NCBI GenBank assembly: GCA_937922745.1
Contig: CALAJO010000037.1
Coordinates: forward strand, 1,240 to 65,239
Direction: 5' to 3'
Length of the DNA: 64,000 nt
From: an uncultured cyanobacterium
Lineage (GTDB): Bacteria; Cyanobacteriota; Vampirovibrionia; Vampirovibrionales; JAGQHJ01
A program made the position numbers and the translations under genes. Below the pieces are notes generated by a model that was not told where the DNA came from, did no database searches, and saw only the letters and a list, made by a program, of their open reading frames with translations. Shown here piece after piece: positions 3,789 through 50,610 of this stretch (the first letter of the stretch is position 1; each line of letters begins with the position of its first letter).

Positions 3789-4881
3789 ACGCCAAGCCGA
3801 CCGCATCCCGGATATGCGGAAGCTGATGCGTATCCAGCTTCTCGAGAATACCTTGGTTGATGCGGTTGAGAAGCCCTGGCCCTTCGTAAATCAGCCCGGT
3901 ATACACCTGTATCAGGTTTGCCCCGTGGCTAATCTTCTCCCAGGCGGAATCGGCATCGTTGATGCCGCCAACCCCGATTAAGACCGTGTCCGGCTGATGC
4001 CGTGTCAGATAATACAACTCTCCCAACAGGCGCGTGGACTTGTGTCGAAGCGGTTGGCCGCTCAGCCCGCCACGCCCGATAGCCTCAATCACCTTTTCAT
4101 GTGTTCTTAACCCTTCACGCCCCGACGTGGTGTTGGAGACAACCCATCCCGCAACTTCAAACCGGCAACCAATCTCAACGATCTCCTGAAGCTGGCTCCC
4201 CGTTAAATCCGGCGACAGCTTGAGCAATAATGGCCGAGCCTTCTTGGTTGCTTCTGCCAAACCCACTTGCCGAATGGCAGATAACAGCGTTTCCAAGGTT
4301 TCCGGATCCTCAAAGGTCTTGCCCTCTTCCGTATTCGGGCAACTGATGTTAAGGCAGACGTAGGCCCCATAGCCCGCTACAGCCTGGTAGGCCGCGATAA
4401 ATTCATCCAGGCCGGCTTGTCCCATCAATTGCGCATCCGGCGTTTTAACCAGGCTGATCCCGACCGGCCAATCGGCAGGCAGGCTTGCAATGCGCGGCTG
4501 AAGGGCCTGTACGCCAAGGTTATTCAAACCCATCCGGTTAATGATAGCTTGATCCTGGGGAAGGCGGAACAGACGTGGCTTGGCATTCCCTGGCCATGGC
4601 AACGCCGAAATGGAACCGGCTTCCATAAACCCGAAACCCAGCTTGCGTAACGCGCCTGTGATCCTCAAATTCTTGTCGAACCCAGCCGCGATGCCAACGG
4701 GATTCTGGAATGCGTATCCCCAAAACGATTGCTGGAGCCGCGGATCCTGCGTTTGTGGGTAGAAGCCGGCAACCCATCCGGCCATAAATTGGCTTCGTTC
4801 GGTCAAATCGAACACAACGTGATGCGCCACTTCCGGATCAAGTTGAAAAAGGAGCGGCTTTATCAGGCTTTTGTATATCAA
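3781..4881 (-). CDS. pyrD: Dihydroorotate dehydrogenase (quinone), class 2
   Basis: Motifs GFDKN, GFGFMEAGSI, NRMGLNNLG, SNTTSGREG typical of PyrD class 2; 366 aa. Confidence 0.9.
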   Translation of the reverse strand: MIYKSLIKPLLFQLDPEVAHHVVFDLTERSQFMAGWVAGFYPQTQDPRLQQSFWGYAFQNPVGIAAGFDKNLRITGALRKLGFGFMEAGSISALPWPGNAKPRLFRLPQDQAIINRMGLNNLGVQALQPRIASLPADWPVGISLVKTPDAQLMGQAGLDEFIAAYQAVAGYGAYVCLNISCPNTEEGKTFEDPETLETLLSAIRQVGLAEATKKARPLLLKLSPDLTGSQLQEIVEIGCRFEVAGWVVSNTTSGREGLRTHEKVIEAIGRGGLSGQPLRHKSTRLLGELYYLTRHQPDTVLIGVGGINDADSAWEKISHGANLIQVYTGLIYEGPGLLNRINQGILEKLDTHQLPHIRDAVGLAFR

Positions 4882-13497: not shown

Positions 13498-14469
13498 ATG
13501 GCAACCTTATCCCCGGCAATTAACCTGGAAAAACCCGAAAAAGAAGCCCTTCGGGTGCAGTTTGGCAAAACCCTGGCCGAGCTTGGCGCGCAAAACCCGG
13601 ATATCGTGGTGCTGGATGCGGATCTCGCATGCTCAACCATGACGAAGTACTTTGCCGACGCCTTCCCGGATCGGTTTTTTAACCAGGGCATCTCCGAGGC
13701 GGACATGATGTGTACCGCCGCAGGGCTCGCCAGCGTGGGGAAGATCCCGTTCGTCAGCACGTTTGCCCTGTTCGCCTCCGGCCGCGCCTGGGATCAGGTG
13801 CGCAACACCATTTGCTATTCCAACCTCAACGTTAAAATCTGCCCCACACATAGCGGCATCAGCCTGGGGGAAGATGGCGCAAGCCACCAATCCATCGAGG
13901 ATATCGCGCTGATGCGGGTCATCCCGAACATGACCGTTGTGGTGCCTTCCGACGCCGTGGAAACCGATCACGTGATCCGCTGGGCGGCAGCGCATGACGG
14001 CCCCATGTATGTCCGCCTGGTTCGTCCGAACCACGCCGTTATTCATGACAAGGCCACATATCAATTCGAACCCTTTAAGATTGAGCTGATGCGCGAAGGA
14101 AAAGACGTTACCCTGTGCGGTACCGGAGAAACCGTTTACCATGCGTTGCTGGCCGCCAAATGGCTTTCGGAGCGGGACGGCATTGAGGCGGACGTCCTGA
14201 ACTGCGCTTTTATCAAGCCGTTTGATGTGGACACGTTGGTTCAGAGCGCCCGGAAAACCGGCAAGGTTGTTACGGTGGAGAGCCACCAGTTTATTGCCGG
14301 GCTTGGCGGCGCCGTGTGCGAAGTCCTTAGCGAGCATCATCCCACGCCGGTCAAGCGCATCGGCACGATGGATCAATTTGGGCAAAGCGGAAAACCGGAC
14401 GATCTCTTCCGAGAATACGGCCTGGACGCCCAATCCATCTACGAGTCCGTTAAAGCCTTTATGCGGTAA
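13498..14469 (+). CDS. tktB: Transketolase, C-terminal (pyrimidine-binding/C-terminal domain) subunit
   Basis: Starts 2 nt after the N-subunit stop; 323 aa with FNQGISEADMM...THSGISLGEDGASHQ motifs. Confidence 0.9.
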   Translation: MATLSPAINLEKPEKEALRVQFGKTLAELGAQNPDIVVLDADLACSTMTKYFADAFPDRFFNQGISEADMMCTAAGLASVGKIPFVSTFALFASGRAWDQVRNTICYSNLNVKICPTHSGISLGEDGASHQSIEDIALMRVIPNMTVVVPSDAVETDHVIRWAAAHDGPMYVRLVRPNHAVIHDKATYQFEPFKIELMREGKDVTLCGTGETVYHALLAAKWLSERDGIEADVLNCAFIKPFDVDTLVQSARKTGKVVTVESHQFIAGLGGAVCEVLSEHHPTPVKRIGTMDQFGQSGKPDDLFREYGLDAQSIYESVKAFMR

Positions 14470-15835
14470 CGGAAAGCTCCTGCATTTTATTTAAGGGATC
14501 GAGCTTAAGGTAACGGCAATACACCTCGTACAAGCCATCCTTGCCGTCATTCGTTTTACGGCTGCTGACATCGTAAATGGATTGCGGATTTTCCATAAAC
14601 ATCTCGCACATCGTTACAATGAAGAAGTGGGATGGATGCTCTTTCTCAAATGCATACTCTCGCCATTGGTCCGGTACACATCCCTTGGGATTGAGGTTAA
14701 TGTTATTGTAAATTCGGTCTCTCTCAGCCAGAAAGATTTGAGCATCCTGTCGATTCATATCATCGGGATAGGCTGCCATATTACCTAGCAACGTATGCCC
14801 AAACTCATGGGTGATAATATCGTAATTGTTAGTAGGATATCCAAAGCCTCCATTCCAAAGATTCCGTCCTGTCAAGGTAATGCAATGCCTGTCAGTAAAA
14901 TAGCTCCCGCCAAAAGGATGCTTTCCTTCTGGAACATAATTGGTATTAACGTAAAACTGAAGCGGCATTTTAGGAGAAAACCATCCTGTCGCTCGTTGAC
15001 TATGCTTACGCCAGAGATCCATCCGGTTCTGTAACATTTCCCCACCAATTTTTGCCGCAATAATAAACATGGTTGATGGATCCAGCGTTGTCGTTTGCCG
15101 CCCTGGGTAATAGCTGTGTTTGTCCAAATCAGTTTTACCCATATAGTCAAATTGGGAGTCCATTTTGAAGCGTCCGGAATTTTGTTTCAGATGCTGATAG
15201 ATCTCATTACACCGGTCAAAATAGTTTCGCAGCGCCAATTTTTGCTGCCGTTGAGTAGAGAAACCTTCTCCGCTCATAATTTTGGCAAGCAACGGCAATC
15301 CATCCACAAAAGCGATGCTCGCATGCTGCATCGCTTTGTAATCACTGGCGTTCTCAGCATGCCGAGCGACCTGAAACAGGTAATTAAAATAAGCTCGCCT
15401 TTCAAATGCGGAAGCATAGGATTTGGAGACACTTTCTAATTCTGTTATGCCTTCATCTGCCATGATTTGGCTTTGAAAGTGTGCGACTTGCTGTTGATAC
15501 TCCGGAGAAATTTTCATATCCGAAATACCTTTGCCCCAGTTATGTTTACAGGTACTTGTTTTTACATAAATCTTGGGATGGCTGTGATTAGGTTCTGGTT
15601 GTCTTGAATAAGCGACGGGCAATGCCGCTGCTGAGAGTAAGGCAGCCATCCCTTTTAAGAAGTTCCTACGGGACAAGCCCCATCGAATTTGACCAATATG
15701 ATGGGGTTCTGCAGCAATCGGCTTGGCCCCCCTGTAAGCAGGCCGGGCAACCGCAGGTTGCACACTGGGCAAAGTGGAATAATGCTGCCGTATTGATACG
15801 TTGAATACCAATATAACCCATCCCTCCTTCTGCAT
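14459..15835 (-). CDS. Tat-exported zinc metallopeptidase-like protein (HEFGH motif)
   Basis: Twin-arginine motif SRRNFLKGMAALLSAAAL near the N-terminus; HExxH (ITHEFGHTLLG) in the C-terminal half; exact start uncertain. Confidence 0.6.
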   Translation of the reverse strand: MQKEGWVILVFNVSIRQHYSTLPSVQPAVARPAYRGAKPIAAEPHHIGQIRWGLSRRNFLKGMAALLSAAALPVAYSRQPEPNHSHPKIYVKTSTCKHNWGKGISDMKISPEYQQQVAHFQSQIMADEGITELESVSKSYASAFERRAYFNYLFQVARHAENASDYKAMQHASIAFVDGLPLLAKIMSGEGFSTQRQQKLALRNYFDRCNEIYQHLKQNSGRFKMDSQFDYMGKTDLDKHSYYPGRQTTTLDPSTMFIIAAKIGGEMLQNRMDLWRKHSQRATGWFSPKMPLQFYVNTNYVPEGKHPFGGSYFTDRHCITLTGRNLWNGGFGYPTNNYDIITHEFGHTLLGNMAAYPDDMNRQDAQIFLAERDRIYNNINLNPKGCVPDQWREYAFEKEHPSHFFIVTMCEMFMENPQSIYDVSSRKTNDGKDGLYEVYCRYLKLDPLNKMQELSVTA

Positions 15836-15939
15836 TCTCCCTCATATAAAACAAGACGCAGGCAAAAATTGCCTTACCCTGTAGGAGAGTAACTGAACAG
15901 GCCCTATGTAGCGGATGTCAGCTCCTTCACAAATTTAAG

Positions 15940-15965
15940 AGCCAGGAATCATGAATTCCTGGCTC
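15940..15965 (-). terminator. Hairpin terminator 3' of pilin copy 1 (gagccaggaat tcatg attcctggctc)
   Basis: Inverted repeat about 30 nt after the pilin stop. Confidence 0.5.
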
Positions 15966-15996
15966 TCTGGTTGTGTCCTGTTGAAAAGGGGCTGAA

Positions 15997-16683
15997 TTAG
16001 CTGGAGAGGCGGACGCCTGCACCGGATTGTGCGTTGCCGAGCGTGCCCACTGCACCGCCCATAACGCTACCGTTGGCGTTGTAGATGCCCTGGTTATCGT
16101 TGCCCCAGAAGAAGGCTTTCTGGCCGTCACGCGGGGTAAAGGCTGCGCCGGCGGCGTCAAAGTCGCCCCACTGGTTAAAGTTGCCCACAAAGATGTCTTG
16201 TCCGGCCTGGTTGGGGTTGGACGCGCCGTTAAAGTCGATACAAAGCATGGTGTTGGCGGCGGCTGCCGGGGTCACGGTCATGGTTGCGCCCGAGGAGAGA
16301 CCGGTGACGACGACGCCGTTAGGCAGTTGGAACCAACCGCTTTGAAATCCGGATGTGCCGCCACACGGGTGTCCGCCTGCGACACCGTTGAGTGGGCTGC
16401 CGGCGGCATCCACGTTCGCGGTGTTGGAAGCATTGGTAAAGTTAAGTGTGGGGACGATGTTGTTGTACAGGGTGCCGGTTGCGCCCACGGTTAACTGGTT
16501 TTGCATTTGCCTGCCGTAATAAGCCTGTTCCAGGGTAGAGACGGTTTCCCGGATTTTGGCGGTGGCTTCGGTGGTGCCTGCGGCTTGTAAAACCTTTGGT
16601 ATGGTAAAAGCAGCGATGATACCCAGCAGAGCCAAGGCGATCAAAAGTTCCGCCAACGTAAAGCCCTTTTGTGCTGTCCTCAT
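15997..16683 (-). CDS. pilA: Type IV pilin (prepilin with leader MRTAQKG|FTLAELLIALALLGIIAAF), copy 1
   Basis: Canonical class III signal G|FTLxE plus hydrophobic alpha-1; GGAGGAA SD 7 nt upstream of the ATG at 16683 (ORF track extends further 5' to 16734); Gly/Ala/Thr/Asn-rich globular part with two Cys. Confidence 0.85.
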   Translation of the reverse strand: MRTAQKGFTLAELLIALALLGIIAAFTIPKVLQAAGTTEATAKIRETVSTLEQAYYGRQMQNQLTVGATGTLYNNIVPTLNFTNASNTANVDAAGSPLNGVAGGHPCGGTSGFQSGWFQLPNGVVVTGLSSGATMTVTPAAAANTMLCIDFNGASNPNQAGQDIFVGNFNQWGDFDAAGAAFTPRDGQKAFFWGNDNQGIYNANGSVMGGAVGTLGNAQSGAGVRLSS

Positions 16684-16769
16684 TTCGATAGATTCCTCCG
16701 TTGTTCGCATCTGGGATGCAATTCCTTCACACACATGTATTTATTTACTGCTTATCGGCTAAGGCCATT

Positions 16770-16800
16770 AGAAAAAGAGAGTGTCTGAGGCTGATTGTAA
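16770..16800 (-). promoter_or_regulatory. Conserved promoter-proximal block upstream of pilin copy 1 (gaggctgattgtaaaatatctttaca), repeated upstream of copy 2
   Basis: About 28-nt block shared between the two copies' 5' regions; contains TACAAT/TAAAAT-like -10 candidates on the minus strand. Confidence 0.4.
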
Positions 16801-16922
16801 AATATCTTTACATGGACGGGAATAGCAAGCCCGGCTTTATCCGTTGATCAATGGAGCGCCAGGCGACAATGCGTTGTCTGTGATCGGTTACGTAACGTAT
16901 CTGTACCAAATCGTCTGCTTTC

Positions 16923-16955
16923 TATTTAAAAAGCCAGGAAGATGACTTCCTGGCT
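16923..16955 (-). terminator. Intrinsic terminator 3' of pilin copy 2 (gccaggaag tcatc ttcctggc + T5 on the minus strand)
   Basis: Perfect hairpin plus T-run about 25 nt after the stop. Confidence 0.75.
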
Positions 16956-16981
16956 TTTTAATGGATTCAGTCAAGGTTGGC

Positions 16982-17668
16982 TTAACTGGCGAGTCGGATA
17001 CCCGCGCCGGACTGTGCGTTGCCGAGCGTGCCCACTGCACCGCCCATTACGGTTCCGTTGGCGTTGTAGATGCCCTGGTTAGCGTTGCCCCAGAAGAAGG
17101 CTTTCTGGCCGTCACGCGGGGTAAAGGCTGCGCCGGCGGCGTCAAAGTCGCCCCACTGGTTAAAGTTGCCCACAAAGATGTCTTGTCCGGCCTGGTTGGG
17201 GTTGGCTGCGCCGTTAAAGTCGATACAAAGCATGGTGTTGGCGGCGGCTGCCGGGGTCACGCTCATGGTTGCGCCCGAGGAGAGACCGGTGACGACGACG
17301 CCGTTAGGCAGTTGGAACCAACCGCTTTGAAATCCGGATGTGCCGCCACACGGGTGTCCGCCTGCGACACCGTTAAGTGGGCTGCCGGCGGCATCCACGT
17401 TCGCTGTGTTGGAAGCATTGGTAAAGTTAAGTGTAGGGACGATGTTGTTGTACAGGGTGCCGGTTGCGCCCACGGTTAACTGGTTCTGCATTTGCCTGCC
17501 GTAATAAGCCTGTTCCAAGGTAGAGACGGTTTCCCGGATTTTGGCGGTGGCTTCGGTGGTGCCTGCGGCTTGTAAAACCTTTGGTATGGTAAAAGCAGCG
17601 ATGATACCCAGCAGAGCCAAGGCGATCAAGAGTTCCGCCAGCGTAAAGCCCTTTTGTGCTGTCCTCAT
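16982..17668 (-). CDS. pilA: Type IV pilin, copy 2 (about 97% identical to copy 1)
   Basis: Same prepilin leader and SD; a handful of conservative substitutions relative to copy 1. Confidence 0.85.
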   Translation of the reverse strand: MRTAQKGFTLAELLIALALLGIIAAFTIPKVLQAAGTTEATAKIRETVSTLEQAYYGRQMQNQLTVGATGTLYNNIVPTLNFTNASNTANVDAAGSPLNGVAGGHPCGGTSGFQSGWFQLPNGVVVTGLSSGATMSVTPAAAANTMLCIDFNGAANPNQAGQDIFVGNFNQWGDFDAAGAAFTPRDGQKAFFWGNANQGIYNANGTVMGGAVGTLGNAQSGAGIRLAS

Positions 17669-17769
17669 TTCGATAGATTCCTCCGTTGTTGCCATTGCGA
17701 TTCAGCTCCTTAAGACCAACTTTTTCTACATGCCAGGTTATCGACAAAGTTGAACTATGGGAGAGGGTA

Positions 17770-17800
17770 TATGAGGCTGATTTTAAAATATCTTTACAAG
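17770..17800 (-). promoter_or_regulatory. Conserved promoter-proximal block upstream of pilin copy 2
   Basis: Same block as at 16770-16800. Confidence 0.4.
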
Positions 17801-18442
17801 GGCTGGAAGTGTCACGCCCTCTATTTAATTCATCCAGAGGAGAATAATTAAACGAGATAACAACGTGAATAAAGCGGGATATAACAAAAGATATCCTGAA
17901 AAAGACTTGCTAAACCAGGGACGAGGGCGCTTGTTGGCATTGAATGAAAGGAAGGAGAGCGGCAACGAAGGGCTAATCCCTAAGCAGGAATGCAGATACA
18001 GGTGTAACGTCCCTTGAAAAAAGCCATAGAGAAAGGGTTGACAGTATAGTTTAAATGCGATATATTAAAGATATGCAAAAAGGCGCTTGTTCTGGTGTGG
18101 TCGAACGTTGGCCGGTTCAGCGCCGAAGGGTTTCCATTTTTTATCAGACTGATTATTCTTATATCTAATTTATTAGGTTTAATACTGGGTTGTCTGAACG
18201 TCAAGCCCTACCGGGTCTTTTCAGTCGGATTCGGCGGAGGGGATTACTGTATCTTGACGGAATGGCAAGGGTTTTAAGATTTTCAACTGAATTCCATCGT
18301 AACCAGCCGCGTCTTTCCAATAAGGTTACGATGGCAATAGCCAAGCATCCTGGATCCCCAGGAATGCGTTATACCACACTGCGCTTGATAGCAACCCTAT
18401 CAGGCCCATTTTCGCATATCCTTTCGCGAGGCCTCAGCGCCC

Positions 18443-18852
18443 CGTCATTGCGAGCCCGGAATGCAATTCAGACGGTGCAATCTCTCAACTGTAAACCGAG
18501 ATCTGTCCCCTCTCCCGCGCGCGGGGGAGGGCTAGGGTGGGGGCCTCCTCCAACGAAGCTGTTATCTGCTATGCCATCCTCCAAGTCGAAGCCTGGATTC
18601 CCGCCTGCGCGGGAATGACAGCATGAAATAGGGAAATGATGTTAAAAATGGCTTCGTTCATTTTGGTTTGCATCTCAAAATCTCGCAGGCTCTGTCATCC
18701 CCGCGCAGGCGGGGATCCAGTCATCCAGTTGCAAGAGGGAAAGCAGAAACACATGCCCAAGTCTGCAACCCAGCCGAAAGTCCCTCCTCTCCCTTGCCTG
18801 CGCGGGAATGACAGCATGAAATAGGGAAATGATGTTAAAAATGGCTTCGTTC
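18443..18852. repeat. Cluster of REP/MITE-like palindromic elements (variants of GTCATTCCCGCGCAGGCGGGAATGAC) including a 62-bp direct repeat at 18598-18659 and 18791-18852
   Basis: Palindromes at 18443-18475, 18507-18531, 18598-18622, 18691-18720; two nearly identical copies of palindrome-half plus a 45-nt tail. Confidence 0.7.
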
Positions 18853-18911
18853 GTTCATTTTTTAATTGAAGGTATAAAAATGGGTTTGTTTTCTCATTTT
18901 TCGAAAACGCA

Positions 18912-18958
18912 CAAAAACCAAACCCCTCACAACCAGTGTAAGGGGTTTGGAAAAAAAG
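18912..18958 (-). terminator. Intrinsic terminator 3' of ahcY (aaacccctta cactggttgtg aggggttt + T-run on the minus strand)
   Basis: Hairpin plus ggtttttgtg read on the minus strand directly after the ahcY stop. Confidence 0.7.
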
Positions 18959-18977
18959 GATGTTGTTCCAGATGACC

Positions 18978-28905: not shown

Positions 28906-29121
28906 ATCCAGAAGACGTGGATGATATTAAATGCAGTCGTTCAAACGCCATTTATTTGCAGGGCTTGTGTTCCTCAGCCTGGTTTCTGGATATTGATACA
29001 CAAATCGGGGCTTTAACATACCTTCACTAACCCATACCGGTTTGTATGATCTTCAGCAAAATATTTTAATTAGTTGTTTTTATATATTTAATGATGTTTT
29101 AGTGTGTTTTAAGGAATGGGA

Positions 29122-30747
29122 ATGGCAATTGATGGCCAATTGAATAAGCCTGCTGCTTATACCAGAAAGACCAGGGATATGACCGCTGCTGAAGCGGATG
29201 CCGTCGCCAGTAATACTGAGAAGAATTGGAAGCCTGCGCCTAAGGCGAGTCCTCCCGCCCAAAATGCGTTGGAGCCCGGCCTTGTCCCAGGAAAATCTCC
29301 TGCCAAAAAACCTGGCATTGCCCCAAAAAAGGCAGTCACAGCCGAAGATATCCGCATTAATAACTTTGTTGCACAGGCTGCCAAAGCACCGGATCAGCCA
29401 TCAGCGCAAGTAGAGCAGTTGGCTGCGCCACAGCAGGCAACAGGGGCCGTCACCTCCGGCAAGCTTTCCTCAACGGCCAAGATAAGCCTGAGTAAGCCAG
29501 GCACCAAACCGCCCGCAAAAGATCCGGTTAACGAGGCGATGCGTTTGCGCTTACGGGATGAAATTGATACAAGAAACCATCCGCAAAAGGTGGAACAGGC
29601 CAGGACAACTGCGCTGAATTCCCGGTTGCAGACGGCGCAAGCCAATTTCGACGCACAGCTTGAGTCCGAGTTTTTCCGCTCCCAGCAAACCGGGGATACA
29701 CGGCGTTTGCAGCAACTAAAGACGGATCATACGCTGACCCAGGAATATTATCACCAACAGCATAAAGGCGAAATACCGGCATATTTAACCCGCGATGAAT
29801 ATGTGGACTTCGTGGGCAGATATCGGCAAAATGCCAGGCGTTACTGGAATGAAGCCCAGGCTCTGTATGATAATGGTATTCCTAACAGCCTGATTACGGC
29901 TGAGGACAGGGAAGGGTTTGTGAGCAGTACGGTTAACCGCCGGTTACGTAACGATAACGATGAGTATGTGTACCAGCAGTATGTGCAGGCCAACCTTCTC
30001 GACCCGACTAAAGTAAGCCTGACTGAATTTAAGCAGCAGCAAAGGCTGGCACGTGAACAGCAGCAAGCGGAAGATGCTGCACGGCGGGCCTACGAGTCTC
30101 AAAGGCGGTTTGAGCAGGCCAGTTGGAACCTCCAGGACTTTAAATTGCCCACAGACGGTTCACCTATACCCTGGCGCCCGGCCCGAACGGAGGAAGAAGC
30201 CATTATGATGGGCCAAGTGTTGGGGATTGACTATGTTAACGCCCGCCACGTTAAACCCACGCTGCAACAAATGAATGACTTTAACCAAGCGGTTGCGAAT
30301 ATGCCCGGGCATGTGATCAAAACGCTTTTGGATAATAATACGGGGTTGTATGGTTATCCAGGCCAACGGGTGGATGATCATCCGAATTTTCGGACTGAAA
30401 AAATCCGGGGAAATAATATTGGCTATAGCGGCTATTTCGATAGAAAGGCCATTACCACTTTAGCTCCCGGCTATCAATGGGTTGCCCTGCATGAGAATGC
30501 CCATACATATGCTGCATTGACAGGTTTCCCGGATTTGACTGAAGAATGGGCAGCTTTGACTGACCGATATTTGAAATATTGGGAAGGCACGCATCATGAA
30601 ACGCCCGTAGAAAGCTTTGCACAAGCCAGTACATTATATTTCCTCAGTCCTCAAGCAAGAAACAGCTTGCCACAACCCGTTAGGACTTTTTTGGAAAAAG
30701 TTTACAGCCCGGAATATCTTCAATCCCTTAATTCGGCACAACTTTAG
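29122..30747 (+). CDS. Effector-like protein: Lys/Pro/Ala-rich disordered N-terminus, coiled-coil Gln-rich middle, C-terminal HExxH (ALHENAH) metalloprotease-like domain
   Basis: AT-rich upstream, AAGGAA SD; HExxH plus downstream E/H candidates; no confident family assignment. Confidence 0.6.
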   Translation: MAIDGQLNKPAAYTRKTRDMTAAEADAVASNTEKNWKPAPKASPPAQNALEPGLVPGKSPAKKPGIAPKKAVTAEDIRINNFVAQAAKAPDQPSAQVEQLAAPQQATGAVTSGKLSSTAKISLSKPGTKPPAKDPVNEAMRLRLRDEIDTRNHPQKVEQARTTALNSRLQTAQANFDAQLESEFFRSQQTGDTRRLQQLKTDHTLTQEYYHQQHKGEIPAYLTRDEYVDFVGRYRQNARRYWNEAQALYDNGIPNSLITAEDREGFVSSTVNRRLRNDNDEYVYQQYVQANLLDPTKVSLTEFKQQQRLAREQQQAEDAARRAYESQRRFEQASWNLQDFKLPTDGSPIPWRPARTEEEAIMMGQVLGIDYVNARHVKPTLQQMNDFNQAVANMPGHVIKTLLDNNTGLYGYPGQRVDDHPNFRTEKIRGNNIGYSGYFDRKAITTLAPGYQWVALHENAHTYAALTGFPDLTEEWAALTDRYLKYWEGTHHETPVESFAQASTLYFLSPQARNSLPQPVRTFLEKVYSPEYLQSLNSAQL

Positions 30748-40369: not shown

Positions 40370-43300
40370 CTAGCTGACTTTTTCAAGCTGGGTTAACTTG
40401 GGATCCAAAAGTCGTTTGCCGATCCCTTCAAACGTAATGTTGAGGATGACCTGGTTATCGTCCATCGTAATCACGCGCTTGATAACCCCTTTACCATACC
40501 GCTGGTGTCGTACTTCTTCTCCTGCCTTGTATTCCACCGAAACGGACGGCGCAAGATTCGACTTGACGACGGGTATTCCCATGCCCTCTGCCGCTGGCGG
40601 CGTGTGGCTCGATGGATGCGGATCCGCTTGCTGGGGCAATATGTCCTGGTCGTGGAGTTCGGTGTACTGCACGGGCCGGGCTTCCTCAAAATCCAGCCCC
40701 AGGGAGAAATCCATCAGGTCATCCGCATTTTGATCGCCGTAGAGGAAATCAAGCGGATCTTTTTCGCTCCCGGTGTTGGCCGGAGCTTCGTTCTGCTCCG
40801 CGTGGGGCGGCTGATGCATCCATTCATCTGCGTTCAACTCCTGCAGGATATCACTCATTCCCTCCGTCTGCTGCTGGTGGATAGCGGTTGGGGTCGCCTG
40901 CTGTTCCGGCTCCTTGAAGTCCGAGAAATCAAAGTCGAGCGCCATCTCATCGTCAAAACCAAGCGCTGCGGTATCCAGGTGAAAAGGCGCTTCTTCCTCC
41001 TGTGCGATATCTGCCGGGGCAGAAGGCGTTGTCGATTCAGGCGGGGTCACTTCCAGCATGGATAAATCAAAGTCATTGCCCAGTTCTTCCGACGCCAGGG
41101 GCTCCAGTTGAAGCGATGGCGGCACGGGCTGCTGCGATGCCGAAACCGCGTTTTCCATCTCATCCCAATTGATATCCAGCCCCGGATCCAACTCAGGCGT
41201 ACTTGCCTGGGCTGAAGGCTCCTCATCCAGGCGCAGGGAAGGAGGCAGGAGGTTCTCGGAGCCATCGCCATCCGGTGCCGCAAATTCCATGTTCAACGCA
41301 AGCAGGGCTTCCAGGTTGGCATCCGGTTGAGGATCATTCATGGTGGCGTCCATCGCCGGATGCGGCATATCCAGAAAAGCTTCGCCGCTGGCCACAACCT
41401 GTTCCTTATCCAGCGTGGCATGCTTGTTGGGATTGATAAAGGTAGGCGGTTCGCTAGAATCCAGCAGGGCATCGTTGTCCAGGTCAAAGAACGGCAATGC
41501 GCCCGGCGATTCATGTTCTGGAGATACCCCTTCTTCCTGGGCAGGAGATTGCCCTTCGTTGAGATACGCCTGTAACCAGTCTTCCTCCTGTGGCATTGCT
41601 TCCTGTGCGGGCATTGCGGGTGCTGGGGCCGGTGCGTTTTCAACCGGTTGGGCGGCTGCCATCCGGGCGTTTTCTCCCAGCAGCGCCAGCAGATCCTCAT
41701 CGTTAAACCCTGCGCCCACCACGGTAACGTTTTCCTCGGGGTTGGAGGAAATGGCCGACGCAAGGGGGATATGCGCCTGCGCTTCATCGCCTTGGTTGTG
41801 GCCTAACTCCTGGAGATAAGCGAGCGCGTCATCCCGGTTCATATCCGAGGAGGCTTCCCCGTCCGGGCCTTTAATGTACACCTTGTCGTACACGGTTTGC
41901 GAGCTGGACTTGTACTCGGCATCCAGCTCCAGTTGCTCCGTATCCGTTTCCAGCTTTTTCTCGTGGACGGTTTCGATCAGATCCGGGGCCATATTGCCAA
42001 ACGGGCTTTCTTCCAGCTCTAGCGTGCCCAGTTCACCGTCCAGAGACAGTTCGGCCTGGCCCGGAACAAAGTCTACCTGGGGCATGCCCTTGGTAATATT
42101 CGGTATTTCCCGTTGCACGAGGAGGTAAAGCCCTTGCTCATCCGGGGAGGAAAGGCCGGACAGCTCCAGGCCGGAGAAATCCAGCCCCATTAAGTCATTT
42201 TCCGCAGGAGGCAATGGGTTGGGCTGCATTGCGCTTTGGCTTGCCTCAACCGGCGGCTCCAAAGCCTCCGGCAAGCCGGGCAGATCCAAAGCAACCGGCT
42301 CTGGGTTCAATATCATCTCCTGGGGCAACGTCAGCGATTCATCATGGGGCGCTTCTGCCGGCTCGGATTGTGTGGGTTCGGTGGCGGTTTCATTGAAAAT
42401 GGGTTCGTTTGCTGCATTTTCAGTCTTGGGGGCTGTATCATTCCAGCTTAGCAGTTCCGCCTCAAAGGAATCGAAAGAGGTCGGCAGATCCAAATCCAAC
42501 TGCGGCAAGTCGCCAAGGGCATTATGTTCCGATTCTTGCAGCTCGGGGGAGGGCTCTGGCGCGTCATCTACAGCTAACGGCTGGAACGGTGGCATGGCTT
42601 CGGTTTGCTCCTCAATGCCGTCGCTTTGTTCTACAAAGCTGTCGAACAGGGCTTCCTCAAACGCCAGGGATTGCTCCAGGCTTTCGGAAAGCATCTGGAC
42701 GGGTTCTTTGGGTTCTGCCTGGACGGGAGTATCCGGTGCATGGTCTTGCGGGGGATGCTCCGGTTGCGCCGTATCCGAGGCTGGCATTTGCGAGGGCAGG
42801 TCGAGATCCAGTGACCCGAAGTCCAGGTTGAATGACGCCATGGACAGTTCCGGCATGTCGTCTTCAGGCGGATGATTGACCGGCTGGGGCGTTTCGGTTG
42901 TAGAAGGCAGTTCCTCTGCCGGGAGCGTATGCTGGAGCAATGTTTCTATGTTCACTTCCTCAGAGGCAACGTTTTCAGGAGGAGGGTTTTCCGAGGGAGC
43001 CGTGTTTGCTTCAACTGTTTCGTTTAATGAGGGCAGGGTGTCCAGCCCATCGAAATTCAGGTCGAACGAAGCCTCGGTTTGCATTGGGGTGGAATGATCC
43101 GATCTCAGAAAGCCGTCAAAATCCGATAACTCTTCATCGAAGACATCTGGACTCGGCGGCGTCAAGCTTTCCGTGGGTGTCGCGTCGGGTGTGCTTCGCA
43201 TAAACCTGTCGAATTCCGCCAAGTCGGGATCCGCATCGAAGCTGCGAATGGGTGTTTTCGGGGCAGGTTCGACAGCTTGCGCTTGTTGGGAGGAAACAGG

Positions 43301-45085
43301 TTCGGTATCCGGCACGCTGCGCATAAAGCTGTCAAAGGCGGCAAAGTCGTCGTCATTGATGTTCTCAATGTCCAATCCCGGCAGGATGTTCAAGTTTTCC
43401 AGCGGCGGCGGTTTTAGGGAATCACTGATGTTGGCGGCATCATCACCGAAAACCGGGTGGGGAAGTTCCCATTCGCCACTTTCCGGCTGACTGGGAATAG
43501 GAGTGAAAACCTCCGGGACAGCCTCCTCATAATCGATCTGGGCAGCCGCCATTAAGGTTTCAAAGTCCCGTGTTTGGTTCTCCTCAGCCAGGGCCGATTC
43601 TTCCAGAGGATGCTCCGATGATTCGCCCTCCGGCGGGCGCTCGTGGCTTTCCGGTTCAAAAGCCGCCTCGATTTCCAGCGGAGCCAAAGGCATATTCGCA
43701 GGGAGATGTCCCAAACCGGGCAATTCTCCAAAGGGTTCTTCAGACGGCTGAAAATCCTCTTCTGCCGGGATATGACGAGAGGCTTCAAGGCTTTGCTCAG
43801 CTTCCAAAGGTTGAACTGCTTGCGGGATAGCCTCAATTGGCGCATTGTCGTCGGATAGTCGAAGTTCTTGGCCATCAAAACCAGATGGTTCTATCATGGG
43901 CTCGGCTTCGGGTATCTGCGGCGCAGCCTCAGCTATTAAGCCCGGCGGTTGGGGCTGATCGGGTTCCGGAAAAAAATCGGGCTCTTCCACGGTCTTGTCC
44001 GGGATAAACAGATCCAGCCCGCTCGTGATGTCGCCGCTGATTTGGATGCCGTTATCACCGAAAACGCGCTTTTCTTCCCAGCGGTCATTAATGTACTCGT
44101 CCCAATACCGGCTCACGTTGCTTACCAAAAAGGTGCGGTGGCGTGTGTGTCTTATAAATTCCAGCGTTGCGTCCGTTTCGATCTCACAAGCTACCAGCAT
44201 CATATGCGTATCCGGATGAAGGTTCTGCCGGGACGCCATGCGCAGAAGGCCCGCGTAAGCAAACGGGAGAAACTCCGAAGGCAACTGGGACAGGTTAATG
44301 TGCAGGGATTGCGGCAGGTGGTCCAGTCGCAGGATGTTGTTGGGATTGGAGGTGAATAACCGGCTGGTGTGGAATGCGTATAACTGGTGCAGGATAACGG
44401 CGGAAAGCGGGTGTTGTTGCATTGCCGGGTGATTGACGAAATACTGGAGCGGGATAAAGTCCGGTGTGGCGGGAACCAGGCTTAACAGAAAACGCGACGC
44501 TTCCGCCTGGATGGTTTTGGGCAGGTTCGCCACAATCCACTCGATAAAATTGCTAATGCCCACATCCTGGATGGATAGGCGGGCGTCAATCCCCGCATAC
44601 AGTTCCTTAACACCTGTTTCGGACAGGTTAATGCCCACCGGGTCCAGGATGAGGATCGGCAGCCGGGCCTCCTGAAGGCTATGGATGACTTTACGGTGAA
44701 GCCCAACCTTGCTGGGCTTGACATACACGATATGCCCGGAGTCATTCAGATCCATCACAATGTCATTCAGGGATATTGGTGCAACCGGATCGCTTTGCTC
44801 CAGCCGCAAACGGAAGTATTCCTTAGGCGAAACGGTTTTAACCGACTGAACCCGTGTGTCCGGCTGACCGGATACGGGGAGCATCATCAGTTTCAGCGCG
44901 TCCGGGCTATCCGGCTCCTGTAGGACGCTTTCAATCTGCGCATAATAATGCTGGCCGGTCCGGGTGATAAAGTCGAGAATCGTCCCCGGCTTTGGCAGAA
45001 CCGCCCATTGTGTACACCGACCTTCAATCGTATTGGCTGTCAGTTTCTCAATCGATATTGTTAACGCGGCCATGGACTCCAACAT
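40370..45085 (-). CDS. Giant (1571 aa) highly acidic, largely disordered repeat protein with a structured about 330-aa N-terminal domain and a C-terminal UvrD/PcrA-C-terminal-like (Tudor/SH3-like) domain
   Basis: Continuous ORF; D/E/P/Q/S/L-rich with recurring [DE]F[DA]xF[ML]RSxPD and SF[DN]L[ND]FxxLD motifs; C-terminus GEEVRHQRYGKGVIKRV...VILNITFEGIGKRLLDPKLTQLEKV resembles helicase UvrD_C_2/DUF3553. Confidence 0.7.
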   Translation of the reverse strand: MLESMAALTISIEKLTANTIEGRCTQWAVLPKPGTILDFITRTGQHYYAQIESVLQEPDSPDALKLMMLPVSGQPDTRVQSVKTVSPKEYFRLRLEQSDPVAPISLNDIVMDLNDSGHIVYVKPSKVGLHRKVIHSLQEARLPILILDPVGINLSETGVKELYAGIDARLSIQDVGISNFIEWIVANLPKTIQAEASRFLLSLVPATPDFIPLQYFVNHPAMQQHPLSAVILHQLYAFHTSRLFTSNPNNILRLDHLPQSLHINLSQLPSEFLPFAYAGLLRMASRQNLHPDTHMMLVACEIETDATLEFIRHTRHRTFLVSNVSRYWDEYINDRWEEKRVFGDNGIQISGDITSGLDLFIPDKTVEEPDFFPEPDQPQPPGLIAEAAPQIPEAEPMIEPSGFDGQELRLSDDNAPIEAIPQAVQPLEAEQSLEASRHIPAEEDFQPSEEPFGELPGLGHLPANMPLAPLEIEAAFEPESHERPPEGESSEHPLEESALAEENQTRDFETLMAAAQIDYEEAVPEVFTPIPSQPESGEWELPHPVFGDDAANISDSLKPPPLENLNILPGLDIENINDDDFAAFDSFMRSVPDTEPVSSQQAQAVEPAPKTPIRSFDADPDLAEFDRFMRSTPDATPTESLTPPSPDVFDEELSDFDGFLRSDHSTPMQTEASFDLNFDGLDTLPSLNETVEANTAPSENPPPENVASEEVNIETLLQHTLPAEELPSTTETPQPVNHPPEDDMPELSMASFNLDFGSLDLDLPSQMPASDTAQPEHPPQDHAPDTPVQAEPKEPVQMLSESLEQSLAFEEALFDSFVEQSDGIEEQTEAMPPFQPLAVDDAPEPSPELQESEHNALGDLPQLDLDLPTSFDSFEAELLSWNDTAPKTENAANEPIFNETATEPTQSEPAEAPHDESLTLPQEMILNPEPVALDLPGLPEALEPPVEASQSAMQPNPLPPAENDLMGLDFSGLELSGLSSPDEQGLYLLVQREIPNITKGMPQVDFVPGQAELSLDGELGTLELEESPFGNMAPDLIETVHEKKLETDTEQLELDAEYKSSSQTVYDKVYIKGPDGEASSDMNRDDALAYLQELGHNQGDEAQAHIPLASAISSNPEENVTVVGAGFNDEDLLALLGENARMAAAQPVENAPAPAPAMPAQEAMPQEEDWLQAYLNEGQSPAQEEGVSPEHESPGALPFFDLDNDALLDSSEPPTFINPNKHATLDKEQVVASGEAFLDMPHPAMDATMNDPQPDANLEALLALNMEFAAPDGDGSENLLPPSLRLDEEPSAQASTPELDPGLDINWDEMENAVSASQQPVPPSLQLEPLASEELGNDFDLSMLEVTPPESTTPSAPADIAQEEEAPFHLDTAALGFDDEMALDFDFSDFKEPEQQATPTAIHQQQTEGMSDILQELNADEWMHQPPHAEQNEAPANTGSEKDPLDFLYGDQNADDLMDFSLGLDFEEARPVQYTELHDQDILPQQADPHPSSHTPPAAEGMGIPVVKSNLAPSVSVEYKAGEEVRHQRYGKGVIKRVITMDDNQVILNITFEGIGKRLLDPKLTQLEKVS

Positions 45086-48714: not shown

Positions 48715-50610
48715 CTACTGGCCATAACCATAATAGTAGTTGCTGTTCGCTGCATTATTACCGTAAGTATAAGCGGCTGGATAAGTGTAGCCCTGGCCGG
48801 CATTCGTTGTGTTATAGCCATACTGCTGATAACTGGGGTATTGGTACGGGCTGTAGGCAGCGCTAGTGTTATAGTTGCTGTAGTAGCCGCTGTTGGCATA
48901 ATTGTTGTAATACGCCATGCTGGGCTGCGAATAGTAGGGTGAATAGTACACATTGGGATATTGGGCATAGCCCTGGGCCTGCTGCGGATAGGTGTAAGCA
49001 TACCCTGGGTAGGAAGCCTGCTGTTCCTGCGCCATTTGAGCGTTCATGGCCGCTTCCTCTTCCATAATCATCCGCTGGTAATCATCCAGGAAGGCTTGCT
49101 GTTTCTCTGTCGGAACCGTTCTCAGCAGATTGTACCTGGCGGCGTCCGTCTGATCCGGGATAAGGTACTGGTTTGAGGCCAGCTTGGTATTAATGTCGTT
49201 CCAGATCTTATGGGCAATCTTTGCCGGGAAGCCGGCGTGGTGAATCATCGGGATCATCTCCCGGGCAGACCGCTTGACCAGCTTAGGGTTATCGTCATCG
49301 CTATCGGCTGTAATGAAATAGACTTCGCCGGTTTTGGGATCTTTTTCGTAGCCGGTAATCGTCAGCTCATGCTTCATATCCAGACGGCCGGTCGTTCCGC
49401 CGAACCGATCCGTTGTGACAATGCCGACCAGGACATCTTCGCCGATATCAATGGCCGAGATGATGTCTTGCAAGGTCTGGTCGAAACTGCGGTAGTAGCC
49501 CATCAAGTAGGGTTCGTTATCGCGGCCCGCGGCAGTAAACTGGTACACAACGGACATCACGCCGCCGTTATCCTTGATGATGCTTTCCATCAAAGTTTTG
49601 CGTTCTTCTTCCAGGCCCTTATCGTAGTCCAGCGTCCCATCCGGGTTGACGCGCATGTCTAATCCCGGATCGTAGGACTGAGCCGCAAGTTTGGTCAACG
49701 CACCCTGATACAGCGCTTCGACAACACCGCGCGCGCCGGGCTCCTTGTTCCGTTGCTGGTTAACCGCGCGAATCAGGCCGCTTTGGGGAAGGTTAACGGT
49801 AACCCAGTACTGCTGGTTATTGGTGCCGGGCACCGGCGTTGCGGGAATGCCGTATTCGTTTAACCGCTCTGCCGCCAGGGAAGGATCTTCCGGCGCAATC
49901 TCGTTAATGGCAGCTTTTTCCACAAAAGCCAGCCTGGGGCTGCTCAGCTCCGCAATGTGCCGTGTAAACTCGCTGGGGCTTCGGTAAGCCATATAGTACA
50001 TCACGCTGGAGGCCACACAGGTTGCGCTGGATGTCACCCGCAGGGTTTCCATATCGATGGGCTGGGAAATTTGCGGTCCGGCGCCACTGTTATAGTAGTC
50101 CATCAAGGCCCGCAGGTTCTGGGGCGTCAAGGTGCCAAAGCGTTGGGTAATGGTCTGGGGCTCGTTAATCAGGCGAACCGTCTCTTCCAGGACAACTTTT
50201 GCATCCAAGCCAGCCGCTTTTTTATTTGTTGCGATTGCATAGAGATGATCCAGCGTGGTTTTCCCATCATCCGATTTATTGTCGGTCAGGCGACCTTTTT
50301 TAAGCTGCTGGTATAAATGCTTTTTGCCGGTTGCAGAAAGGTTTTCCTGGAGCGTGCGGTACATCGCCAGGCGTGTGCCGAATGTTTCACCGGGCTGGAG
50401 TTTTACCTTCAACATCTTGTTGAGTTGCAACGACTCAAACGGATGCAGGATCCAGTCGACAATACTCAGGCTCTTGGATGCGGCCGGCTTGGCTGCGGGA
50501 ATGAATTCCTGGCCGGGCAAAATCGTTACGGCGTCAACGGCCTTTGGCGTTGATGGCACCGCAGAAAGCGGGTTATAGGGCGTTTGGATTGAGGAAACAG
50601 TATTCAACAT
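48715..50610 (-). CDS. Large hypothetical protein with about 120-aa Q/N/Y/G-rich prion-like low-complexity C-terminal tail
   Basis: 631-aa ORF; C-terminus YPGYAYTYPQQAQGYAQYPNVYYSPYYSQPSMAYYNNYANSGYYSNYNTS...; globular N-terminal part with a conserved Cys..His pair but no assignable family. Confidence 0.6.
   Translation of the reverse strand: MLNTVSSIQTPYNPLSAVPSTPKAVDAVTILPGQEFIPAAKPAASKSLSIVDWILHPFESLQLNKMLKVKLQPGETFGTRLAMYRTLQENLSATGKKHLYQQLKKGRLTDNKSDDGKTTLDHLYAIATNKKAAGLDAKVVLEETVRLINEPQTITQRFGTLTPQNLRALMDYYNSGAGPQISQPIDMETLRVTSSATCVASSVMYYMAYRSPSEFTRHIAELSSPRLAFVEKAAINEIAPEDPSLAAERLNEYGIPATPVPGTNNQQYWVTVNLPQSGLIRAVNQQRNKEPGARGVVEALYQGALTKLAAQSYDPGLDMRVNPDGTLDYDKGLEEERKTLMESIIKDNGGVMSVVYQFTAAGRDNEPYLMGYYRSFDQTLQDIISAIDIGEDVLVGIVTTDRFGGTTGRLDMKHELTITGYEKDPKTGEVYFITADSDDDNPKLVKRSAREMIPMIHHAGFPAKIAHKIWNDINTKLASNQYLIPDQTDAARYNLLRTVPTEKQQAFLDDYQRMIMEEEAAMNAQMAQEQQASYPGYAYTYPQQAQGYAQYPNVYYSPYYSQPSMAYYNNYANSGYYSNYNTSAAYSPYQYPSYQQYGYNTTNAGQGYTYPAAYTYGNNAANSNYYYGYGQ

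Follow-up and report, generated by a model that had tools for sequence, protein, structure and literature searches.

A tandem pair of type IV pilin-like genes in a Vampirovibrionales genome, with coding regions that appear to have been homogenised by gene conversion

Two nearly identical genes lying side by side raise the question of whether they are the product of a recent duplication or old neighbours that have been kept alike. The pair considered here is located in a 64,000-nucleotide (nt) stretch of DNA, designated the window below, from an uncultured member of the Vampirovibrionales (contig CALAJO010000037.1, positions 1,240 to 65,239, of assembly GCA_937922745.1). On the minus strand of the window are two head-to-tail open reading frames (ORFs) of 687 nt (228 codons, plus the stop codon), designated pilin copy A (15997-16683) and pilin copy B (16982-17668), that form a direct repeat with a start-to-start distance of 985 nt. 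Both encode 228-amino acid (aa) prepilins that begin MRTAQKG↓FTLAELLIAL, where the arrow marks the predicted cleavage site, and from that site onwards both read FTLAELLIALALLGIIAAFTIPK. The original prediction regarded them as a recently duplicated expression cassette, maintained for dosage or for antigenic or glycoform diversification. The explanation that we consider best, and to which we assign a probability of about 0.72, is that they are two functional, separately transcribed type IV pilin-like paralogues that have been homogenised by gene conversion, and that they probably encode a major pilin. The source is a metagenome assembly, with copy number and the phasing of variants taken as assembled.

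The two coding sequences (CDS) are identical at 665 of 687 positions (96.8%). Sixteen of the 22 differences are synonymous and six are conservative non-synonymous substitutions (T136S, S155A, D196A, S206T, V224I and S227A, from copy A to copy B), all of which are located after residue 135 and in columns that vary across the family alignment. Immediately preceding the ATG, 22 of 22 nt are identical. Beyond this, upstream identity is 53%, identity downstream of the stop codon is 47%, and roughly 83% of the columns are identical when the whole unit is aligned. The diverged non-coding parts contain conserved islands, namely a 27-nt upstream block (26 of 27 positions identical), a G(C/T)CGATAA motif and the stem of the terminator hairpin. 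Weak but significant similarity is retained in the 80-nt spacer that extends from the upstream block to position -22 (score ~4.2 standard deviations above shuffles), and in the 80 nt upstream of the block the similarity between the copies is not distinguishable from that of shuffled alignments. Divergence is also unevenly distributed within the CDS, with 14 differences in nt 1-656 (2.1%) and 8 in nt 657-687 (26%), and a maximum chi-square test places the breakpoint at nt 656 (permutation p = 5e-5). The longest run identical in both copies is 123 nt. By the Nei-Gojobori method, the synonymous divergence (dS) is 0.10 and the non-synonymous divergence (dN) 0.012 over the whole CDS, giving a dN/dS of ~0.12 that, being calculated from just 22 differences, is imprecise; dS is 0.065 in the 5′-tract and is saturated in the last 31 nt. 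The homogenised, putatively gene-converted tract, from -22 to CDS nt 656, corresponds to 16028-16705 in copy A and 17013-17690 in copy B, on the minus strand. The pair had been described as two ~985-bp units, ~97% identical, that differ at five amino acids. The 985-nt spacing stands, as does the identity for the CDS and the adjacent 22 nt, to which it is confined, and the replacements number six, S227A having been missed.

An older tandem duplication, with the coding regions homogenised later by gene conversion under purifying selection, fits this mosaic better than a single recent event, because the non-coding DNA is only ~50% identical when dS in the 5′-tract is 0.065, and because identity drops sharply at the 3′-end of the CDS. 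A sharply bounded tract of high identity inside far more diverged paralogous sequence is the pattern by which concerted evolution through conversion is recognized, and it is the pattern present here. As the spacer between the upstream block and -22 retains residual homology, the promoter region was part of the original duplicate. The sequence of events would then begin with the duplication, long ago, of the complete cassette together with its promoter region, followed by divergence of the unconstrained non-coding positions almost to saturation with retention of the functional islands. More recently, conversion between the copies would have overwritten ~680 bp, from -22 to approximately +656, leaving proteins that differ at merely six conservative residues, all at variable positions. 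Purifying selection rather than diversification is indicated by a low dN/dS and by six replacements that are conservative and fall in columns variable across the family. The net effect would be two near-equivalent pilin genes that provide a higher dosage, or slightly different regulation, and not antigenic variation; such a dosage role is plausible.

Each copy has a Shine-Dalgarno sequence, GGAGGAA, located 11 nt 5′ of its ATG (16693-16699 for copy A and 17678-17684 for copy B, minus strand). There is, in addition, an in-frame ATG 27 nt further upstream in both copies, and this is the start used in the public annotation, which predicts proteins of 237 aa; the resulting 5′-extensions in the public record correspond to 16684-16710 and 17669-17695 of the window. 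The proximal ATG, and hence a 7-aa leader, is favoured because of the conserved spacing of a GGAGG sequence, the N-termini of the family and the acidic nature of the would-be extension. A GGAGG is located 11-14 nt, mostly 11-12 nt, 5′ of the proximal ATG in the window copies and in the five homologous loci read, with a GGAGC at this position in the first gene of one of these loci (L086). Nearly all of the 30 aligned family members begin M-x(4-6)-G↓F, and the extension would generate a 16-aa acidic leader for which the family alignment provides no support. The deposited starts of both copies are therefore probably nine codons too far 5′, a point for the annotation that leaves the mature protein unchanged.

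Downstream of copy A is a hairpin with a 14-bp stem, AGCCAGGAAU...AUUCCUGGCU (15937-15967, minus strand), with a minimum free energy (MFE) of -26.2 kcal/mol (z -4.56), that is followed by a merely weak T-run (CUCUUAAAUUUG). The hairpin downstream of copy B (16926-16961, minus strand) has a 16-bp stem, an A-run and a U-run on its two sides and an MFE of -26.5 kcal/mol (z -5.62), and it stands between copy B and the promoter region of copy A. In the orthologous loci L001 and L002 the gene, when read downstream, also ends in an equally strong hairpin at the corresponding place, unrelated in sequence to that of copy B. Taken together, the description of two complete, separately equipped tandem prepilin genes is borne out, as ORF, Shine-Dalgarno sequence, upstream block and hairpin are found for each, and the 7-aa leader and untranslated extension proposed for them are the favoured interpretation. 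A terminator for each unit had also been claimed; a strong hairpin (approximately -26 kcal/mol) follows each stop codon, and the reservation concerns the T-run of copy A. The codon usage of the pilin genes is host-like, with the GC content of third codon positions (GC3) and the effective number of codons (Nc) matching those of the neighbouring housekeeping genes, and this rules out a foreign origin for the pair.

The conserved block predicted upstream of the genes is present as a 27-nt sequence with exactly two occurrences in the window, where none is expected by chance: TGTAAAGATATTTTACAATCAGCCTCA in copy A (16786-16812, minus strand), which starts 129 nt before the ATG and 55 nt before a CGATA core, and its TAAAAT variant TGTAAAGATATTTTAAAATCAGCCTCA in copy B (17772-17798, minus strand), both located by a motif scan of the window and of the fetched loci of other genomes. 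The block of copy A is an imperfect palindrome, TGTAAA-N5-TTTACA, with an embedded TACAAT. When six upstream regions from five genomes were aligned (the two window copies, L001, L002, L081 and the first L086 copy), TGTAAAnnTATnTTAnAAT, which holds a TAnAAT hexamer, was found 124-131 nt before the ATG. In the same six regions, an A located 8 nt 3′ of the palindromic block is invariant, as is a G.CGATA sequence that is positioned exactly 55 nt from the start of the block, and there is a GGAG 11-12 nt before the ATG that is extended to GGAGG in five of the six. In the 1.73 Mb of fetched loci, every zero-mismatch match to the block lies upstream of a gene of this pilin family. The leader has no Rfam family and no conserved RNA structure, its sole fold being the DNA palindrome itself, without covariation. 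A sigma-54 promoter was considered for the block and rejected by inspection, as the geometry is similar and the GG and GC dinucleotides are absent; a CRP or NtcA site was also rejected, as the spacing of the half-sites (TGTA-N9-TACA) is off by one.

The CGATA core of copy A is part of GCCGATAA (16752-16759, minus strand), an 8/8 match to the -10 element of a sigma-28 (FliA) promoter that is located 68 nt before the ATG and is preceded by a poor -35 sequence, TCTTTTTC. At the same distance from its ATG, copy B has GTCGATAA (17738-17745, minus strand), a 7/8 match. The pattern applied was that of sigma-28 promoters of the FliA/SigD/SigF type, TAAA(GTTT)-N11/15-GCCGATAA. As each copy has the full conserved control region, independent transcription of the two genes is likely, and two readings of the promoter can be made. 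In one, a sigma-28-type promoter would be aided or controlled via the palindrome, centred ~60 nt upstream of the predicted start; in the other, a sigma-70-type promoter would use the TA(C/A)AAT within the block, generating a leader of ~105 nt. The sigma-28-type promoter is slightly favoured as the basal promoter because copies 2 and 3 in L086 retain the G.CGATA without the palindrome, although which sigma factor transcribes the window copies is inferred from these motifs. The core promoter of the SigF type from Synechocystis (TAGGC...GGTAA) was absent from all upstream regions checked.

Both proteins contain a prepilin N-terminal module, with matches to N_methyl PF07963 (32.4 bits, cut-off 21.2, E 6e-8) and TIGR02532 (31.6 bits, cut-off 16.3). 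The short basic leader ends in Gly and is followed by Phe at +1 and Glu at +5 (MRTAQKG↓FTLAE), and in the hydrophobic alpha1-N helix that follows, G21 and P29 in precursor numbering (G14 and P22 once the leader is removed) are invariant in 30 sequences. In the family alignment, the N-terminus GFTLAE...G...AFTIPK (mature F1, E5, G14 and P22) and two cysteines, C107 and C148, are invariant, and HPC, NGVV.GL, LCID.NG, GNFN..G.F and F.WG are further conserved motifs. This N-terminal module is the basis for assigning the proteins to the type IV pilin class. In the predicted processing and filament assembly, a prepilin peptidase encoded elsewhere would cleave after Gly7, Phe1 would be N-methylated, and polymerisation would proceed through the hydrophobic N-terminal helix with its E5, G14 and P22. 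A type IVb pilin, with a leader of 15-30 aa and a variable +1 residue, was considered and set aside, as the leader here is 7 aa and +1 is Phe. A GspG pseudopilin was likewise rejected, as the score with TIGR01710, 26.8 bits, is far under its cut-off of 88.85 and the match is limited to residues 6-56, and as no gsp genes are located in the vicinity.

A search of 5.8 billion proteins identified ~28 full-length relatives with 40-58% identity, all from metagenomes or metagenome-assembled genomes (MAGs), together with the two products of the window itself, annotated at 237 aa. The more distant matches are to pilin-like proteins of shorter length that carry Melainabacteria or Vampirovibrionales labels. 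When 1.84 billion cluster representatives were searched exhaustively with a profile, 4,887 were matched at E <= 1e-10 and 39 at E <= 1e-30, and by these sequence matches the pilin belongs to a small Vampirovibrionales-specific subfamily of ~40 clusters inside a large superfamily. AlphaFold (AF2) models are confident, with a predicted local distance difference test score (pLDDT) of 84.8 for the full protein and, for the head alone, a pLDDT of 86.5 and a predicted template modelling score (pTM) of 0.86. They consist of a ~50-residue N-terminal helix (residues 10-60), a short helix and then ~five strands. When the sequences of the Protein Data Bank (PDB) were searched with a profile, pilins were matched along the N-terminal helix only. 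The equivalog models for GspG, GspH, ComG pilins and Myxococcus PilA cover just the first 30-60 residues, with scores far below their cut-offs. A motif scan of all six frames revealed no other prepilin in the window.

Against this background, the alternative that the whole 985-bp cassette was duplicated in tandem very recently, and was kept for dosage or for antigenic or glycoform diversification without any conversion, has in its favour the exact 985-nt periodicity, the 96.8% identity of the CDS and the confinement of all six substitutions to the C-terminal, family-variable part of the protein. After such an event, the non-coding DNA should match the synonymous sites (dS ~0.07-0.10), yet it is 47-53% identical, the 80 nt upstream of the conserved block resemble random sequence, and divergence is sharply uneven inside the CDS; we therefore regard a fresh duplication as improbable. 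Aligning the units to date the duplication, as originally suggested, gave a mosaic of CDS and flanks that points to an old duplication followed by conversion rather than to a recent event. The diversification that was to explain the duplication is opposed by the dN/dS of ~0.12 and the conservative substitutions. A change in a possible sequon, NGS in one copy and NGT in the other, had been proposed. Both fit N-x-S/T, so that none is gained or lost and a change in N-glycosylation between the copies can be ruled out. PglB-type bacterial sequons require Asp or Glu at -2, and the residue at -2 here is Asn. That the pair is instead an artefact, in which two strain variants of a pilin gene that is present once, or a wrongly resolved repeat, were joined head-to-tail, is suggested by the apparent origin of the window in a 69-kb MAG contig, by the error-prone assembly of near-identical repeats from short reads and by a longest identical run of just 123 nt. 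This is very unlikely because the flanks differ: strain variants would share flanks, and those of the two copies are distinct and largely unalignable on both the 5′- and 3′-sides, still hold the conserved elements of the family at the correct distances, and belong to an arrangement that is frequent in independent Vampirovibrionales assemblies (43 adjacent pairs, and one triplet of the same family).

The proposal that copies A and B encode a major pilin of a Vampirovibrionales bacterium is based on their monocistronic layout. They could also be pilin-like proteins with a class III signal peptide that do not form the main fibre, for example pseudopilins of the type found in type II secretion or competence systems, or surface or secreted proteins that have merely adopted a prepilin N-terminus, as in the extensive paralogue expansions of the order. 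Distant relatives are labelled "type II secretion system protein" in the source records, the 4,887 representatives at E <= 1e-10 shrink to 39 at E <= 1e-30, each genome has many paralogues, no structural match was obtained for the head domain, and no pil genes are located nearby in the window. Such a role is nevertheless rather unlikely, as the GspG, GspH and ComG models extend over just the N-terminal 50-60 residues and fall far under their cut-offs, the spacing of G14 and P22 is that of assembling pilins, and a monocistronic gene with its own promoter region and strong terminator is typical of major pilins and not of operons for minor pilins or pseudopilins. Several observations do count against two functional, conversion-homogenised, probable major pilin genes. 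Foldseek searches of the PDB found no significant neighbour for either the head domain or the full model, the best match being a type IVb pilin from enterotoxigenic Escherichia coli (ETEC), at E 0.36 and with the full-length model only. Motif and Pfam scans of the 30 large ORFs in the window revealed no pilus assembly or prepilin peptidase gene, and the dozens of pilin-like paralogues per genome in the order weaken the designation as major pilin. Neither window copy has an intact -35 half, the sequences there being degenerate with matches of 3/8 or worse, so that the sigma assignment is uncertain here. To the imprecision of the dN/dS noted above must be added that a metagenome assembler might mis-phase variants between 97%-identical copies and so blur the boundaries of the tract; the 3′-boundary adjoins unique sequence and is thus less exposed to this.

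The closest genomic relatives of the pilin are encoded in a Vampirovibrionaceae MAG (53% identity) and a Vampirovibrionales MAG (51%), and the NuoD encoded in the window is 82% identical to that of Vampirovibrionaceae NZW_1234 (the same MAG) and 65-70% identical to Vampirovibrio and Melainabacteria proteins. Vampirovibrio chlorellavorus is reported to have a complete type IV pilus system, with pili near the polar flagellum (PMC4451040). Homologues elsewhere are single genes in unrelated neighbourhoods (L001, L002, L081-83, L084 and L085), with L001 and L084 being paralogues dispersed within one genome. In both L001 and L002, the pilin gene is located between a divergent gene for a GatD-like glutamine amidotransferase and a convergent Skp/OmpH-like gene. 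The window copies are outside this neighbourhood, from which it follows that the locus has moved. A metagenome scan with the family alignment gave, among the matches listed, mostly distant pilin-like genes that matched through the N-terminal motif, with L086 alone informative. This contig has three genes of the pilin family in tandem; copies 1 and 2 share a central 300-nt patch that is 94-96% identical, with ~70-75% identity in the remainder and <40% in the upstream DNA. The third member (3983-4774) has a degenerate GFSMSDM, with Asp for Glu at +5, and is without the palindromic block, although it retains GTCGATAT. Across the fetched loci, pilin-like genes lie next to each other on the same strand in 43 pairs, which have aa identities of 17-84%, and these pairs, together with the mosaic in L086, indicate that tandem arrays patched by conversion are recurrent in the family. 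By sequence identity, the window pair is the most homogenised example seen among the fetched loci.

The promoter motif is similarly widespread. A non-redundant set of 172 pilin-like genes was assembled from the fetched loci, and in 56 of these (33%) there is a CGATA 45-125 nt before the cleavage-site codon, as compared with 6.7% of control windows; the longer [GT][CT]CGATA is present at this distance in 30 of the 172 (17%) and in 1.7% of the controls. A position matrix built around the sites reads cTAAAGTTTT-N11-G(C/T)CGATA and so reproduces the enterobacterial FliA consensus, TAAAGTTT-N11-GCCGATAA. When sites that match this consensus at >=14 of 16 positions were located, 24 of the 36 were found 20-130 nt 5′ of a pilin-like gene. 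In V. chlorellavorus, contig_2 (L023 9904-12023) has three tandem pilin-like genes, each behind a perfect or near-perfect TAAAGTTT-N11-GCCGATAA, and a flagellar-type promoter is likewise positioned ~85 nt before the cleavage-site codon in L018, L024, L035 and L041. These motifs suggest that a sigma-28-family factor drives much of the expansion of pilin-like genes in the order. Going further, and only tentatively, the large, fast-evolving tandem pilin-like family of the Vampirovibrionales could be a sigma-28/FliA-type regulon that is co-regulated with the polar flagellum and has its arrays patched by conversion, with the subfamily described here, which would have its own palindromic operator and a head fold unlike that of solved pilins, possibly forming a fibre for attachment to prey or to surfaces. 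Canonical sigma-28 promoters before many Vampirovibrionales pilin-like genes, and the family palindrome, are apparently undescribed in the literature searched, and the family-specific palindrome could provide a means of identifying a factor that regulates the expression of pili in these uncultured, predatory bacteria related to cyanobacteria.

The remainder of the window, as scanned, consists of ORFs with housekeeping functions (succinate dehydrogenase, aspartokinase, a split transketolase, AhcY, PPDK, IlvD, IleRS and complex I) or without a Pfam match. Directly downstream of copy A, at 14459-15835 on the minus strand, is a 458-aa ORF with an N-terminus that resembles a twin-arginine signal, a HEFGH zinc-metalloprotease motif and no Pfam domain; its GC3 (0.46) and Nc (58.8) are unlike those of its neighbours. 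A 1,571-aa ORF at 40370-45085 (minus strand) has no Pfam match at E <= 1e-3, and this is also the case for the ORFs at 113-1819, 29116-30747 and 48715-50610. On the other side of the pair, ~1.1 kb between copy B and ahcY (17830-18960) is without a convincing ORF. It contains a near-consensus sigma-70 promoter-like sequence on the plus strand (18038-18066, TTGACA-17-TATATT), followed at approximately 18085-18145 by a GC-rich hairpin and a T-run, and this region may possibly encode a small RNA, one without an Rfam match. Further along are an inverted repeat with 48-nt arms that are 81% complementary (18574-18739), to which a plant microRNA family gave a spurious sub-threshold match, and, overlapping it, a 60-nt direct repeat (18603-18662 and 18796-18855) with 98% identity and its two units 193 nt apart. 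Together, the repeats at 18574-18855 look like a small repetitive element similar to a miniature inverted-repeat transposable element (MITE).

On its own, the locus is a routine tandem pilin pair; its modest value lies in illustrating, cleanly and on a small scale, concerted evolution between two complete pilin cassettes, and in giving access to the sigma-28 promoters of the order and to the family palindrome. Comparison with known systems places it as follows. Like PilA of Myxococcus xanthus (8tj2), a type IVa major pilin with a large head, the window pilins have a short leader, F1 and E5 and a mature length of more than 200 aa, and the N-terminal helix gives a profile match (E 1.3e-4). Unlike it, they have no detectable similarity in the globular part, score far below the cut-off of the NCBIfam model for Myxococcus PilA, and have their cysteine pair at 107/148 and not in the C-terminal D-region. 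In Neisseria, promoterless and truncated silent pilS cassettes donate variable segments to pilE, and the pilin is diversified as a result. Non-reciprocal recombination between paralogues would shape the pilin sequence in both cases; in the window, however, both copies are complete and appear to be expressed, conversion homogenises, and selection is purifying. Legionella pneumophila has adjacent, related pilA1 and pilA2 genes, both predicted to encode major pilins, one of which may be functionally silent (PMC13170364). That pair is ~72% identical with differences along the whole length, whereas the window pair is 97% identical with a mosaic that is indicative of conversion. Control of type IV pili by sigma-28-family factors is known from Rubrobacter (WhiG) and Actinoplanes (FliA-family), in which a -35 TAAA and a -10 GCCGATAA precede pil genes (PMC8325347). 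The same consensus is located upstream of many Vampirovibrionales pilin-like genes, although the window copies differ in having an intact -10 half only, together with the family palindrome 55 nt upstream. The nearest parallel in arrangement is within the same phylum, the tandem pilA1-pilA2 genes of Synechocystis sp. PCC 6803, which depend on SigF, a group 3 sigma factor related to sigma-28, and have a leader of ~54 nt (PMC2758279). The TAGGC/GGTAA core promoter of that pair is not found at the window copies, which are, in addition, 97% identical, each with its own promoter region and terminator, and have a head domain unrelated in sequence and a larger mature protein (221 aa). What the two have in common is a tandem pair of pilin genes, here with a sigma-28-type -10 element 68 nt before each ATG, and the arrangement, which is ordinary for the Vampirovibrionales, is comparable to that of the tandem major-pilin paralogues in both Synechocystis and Legionella.

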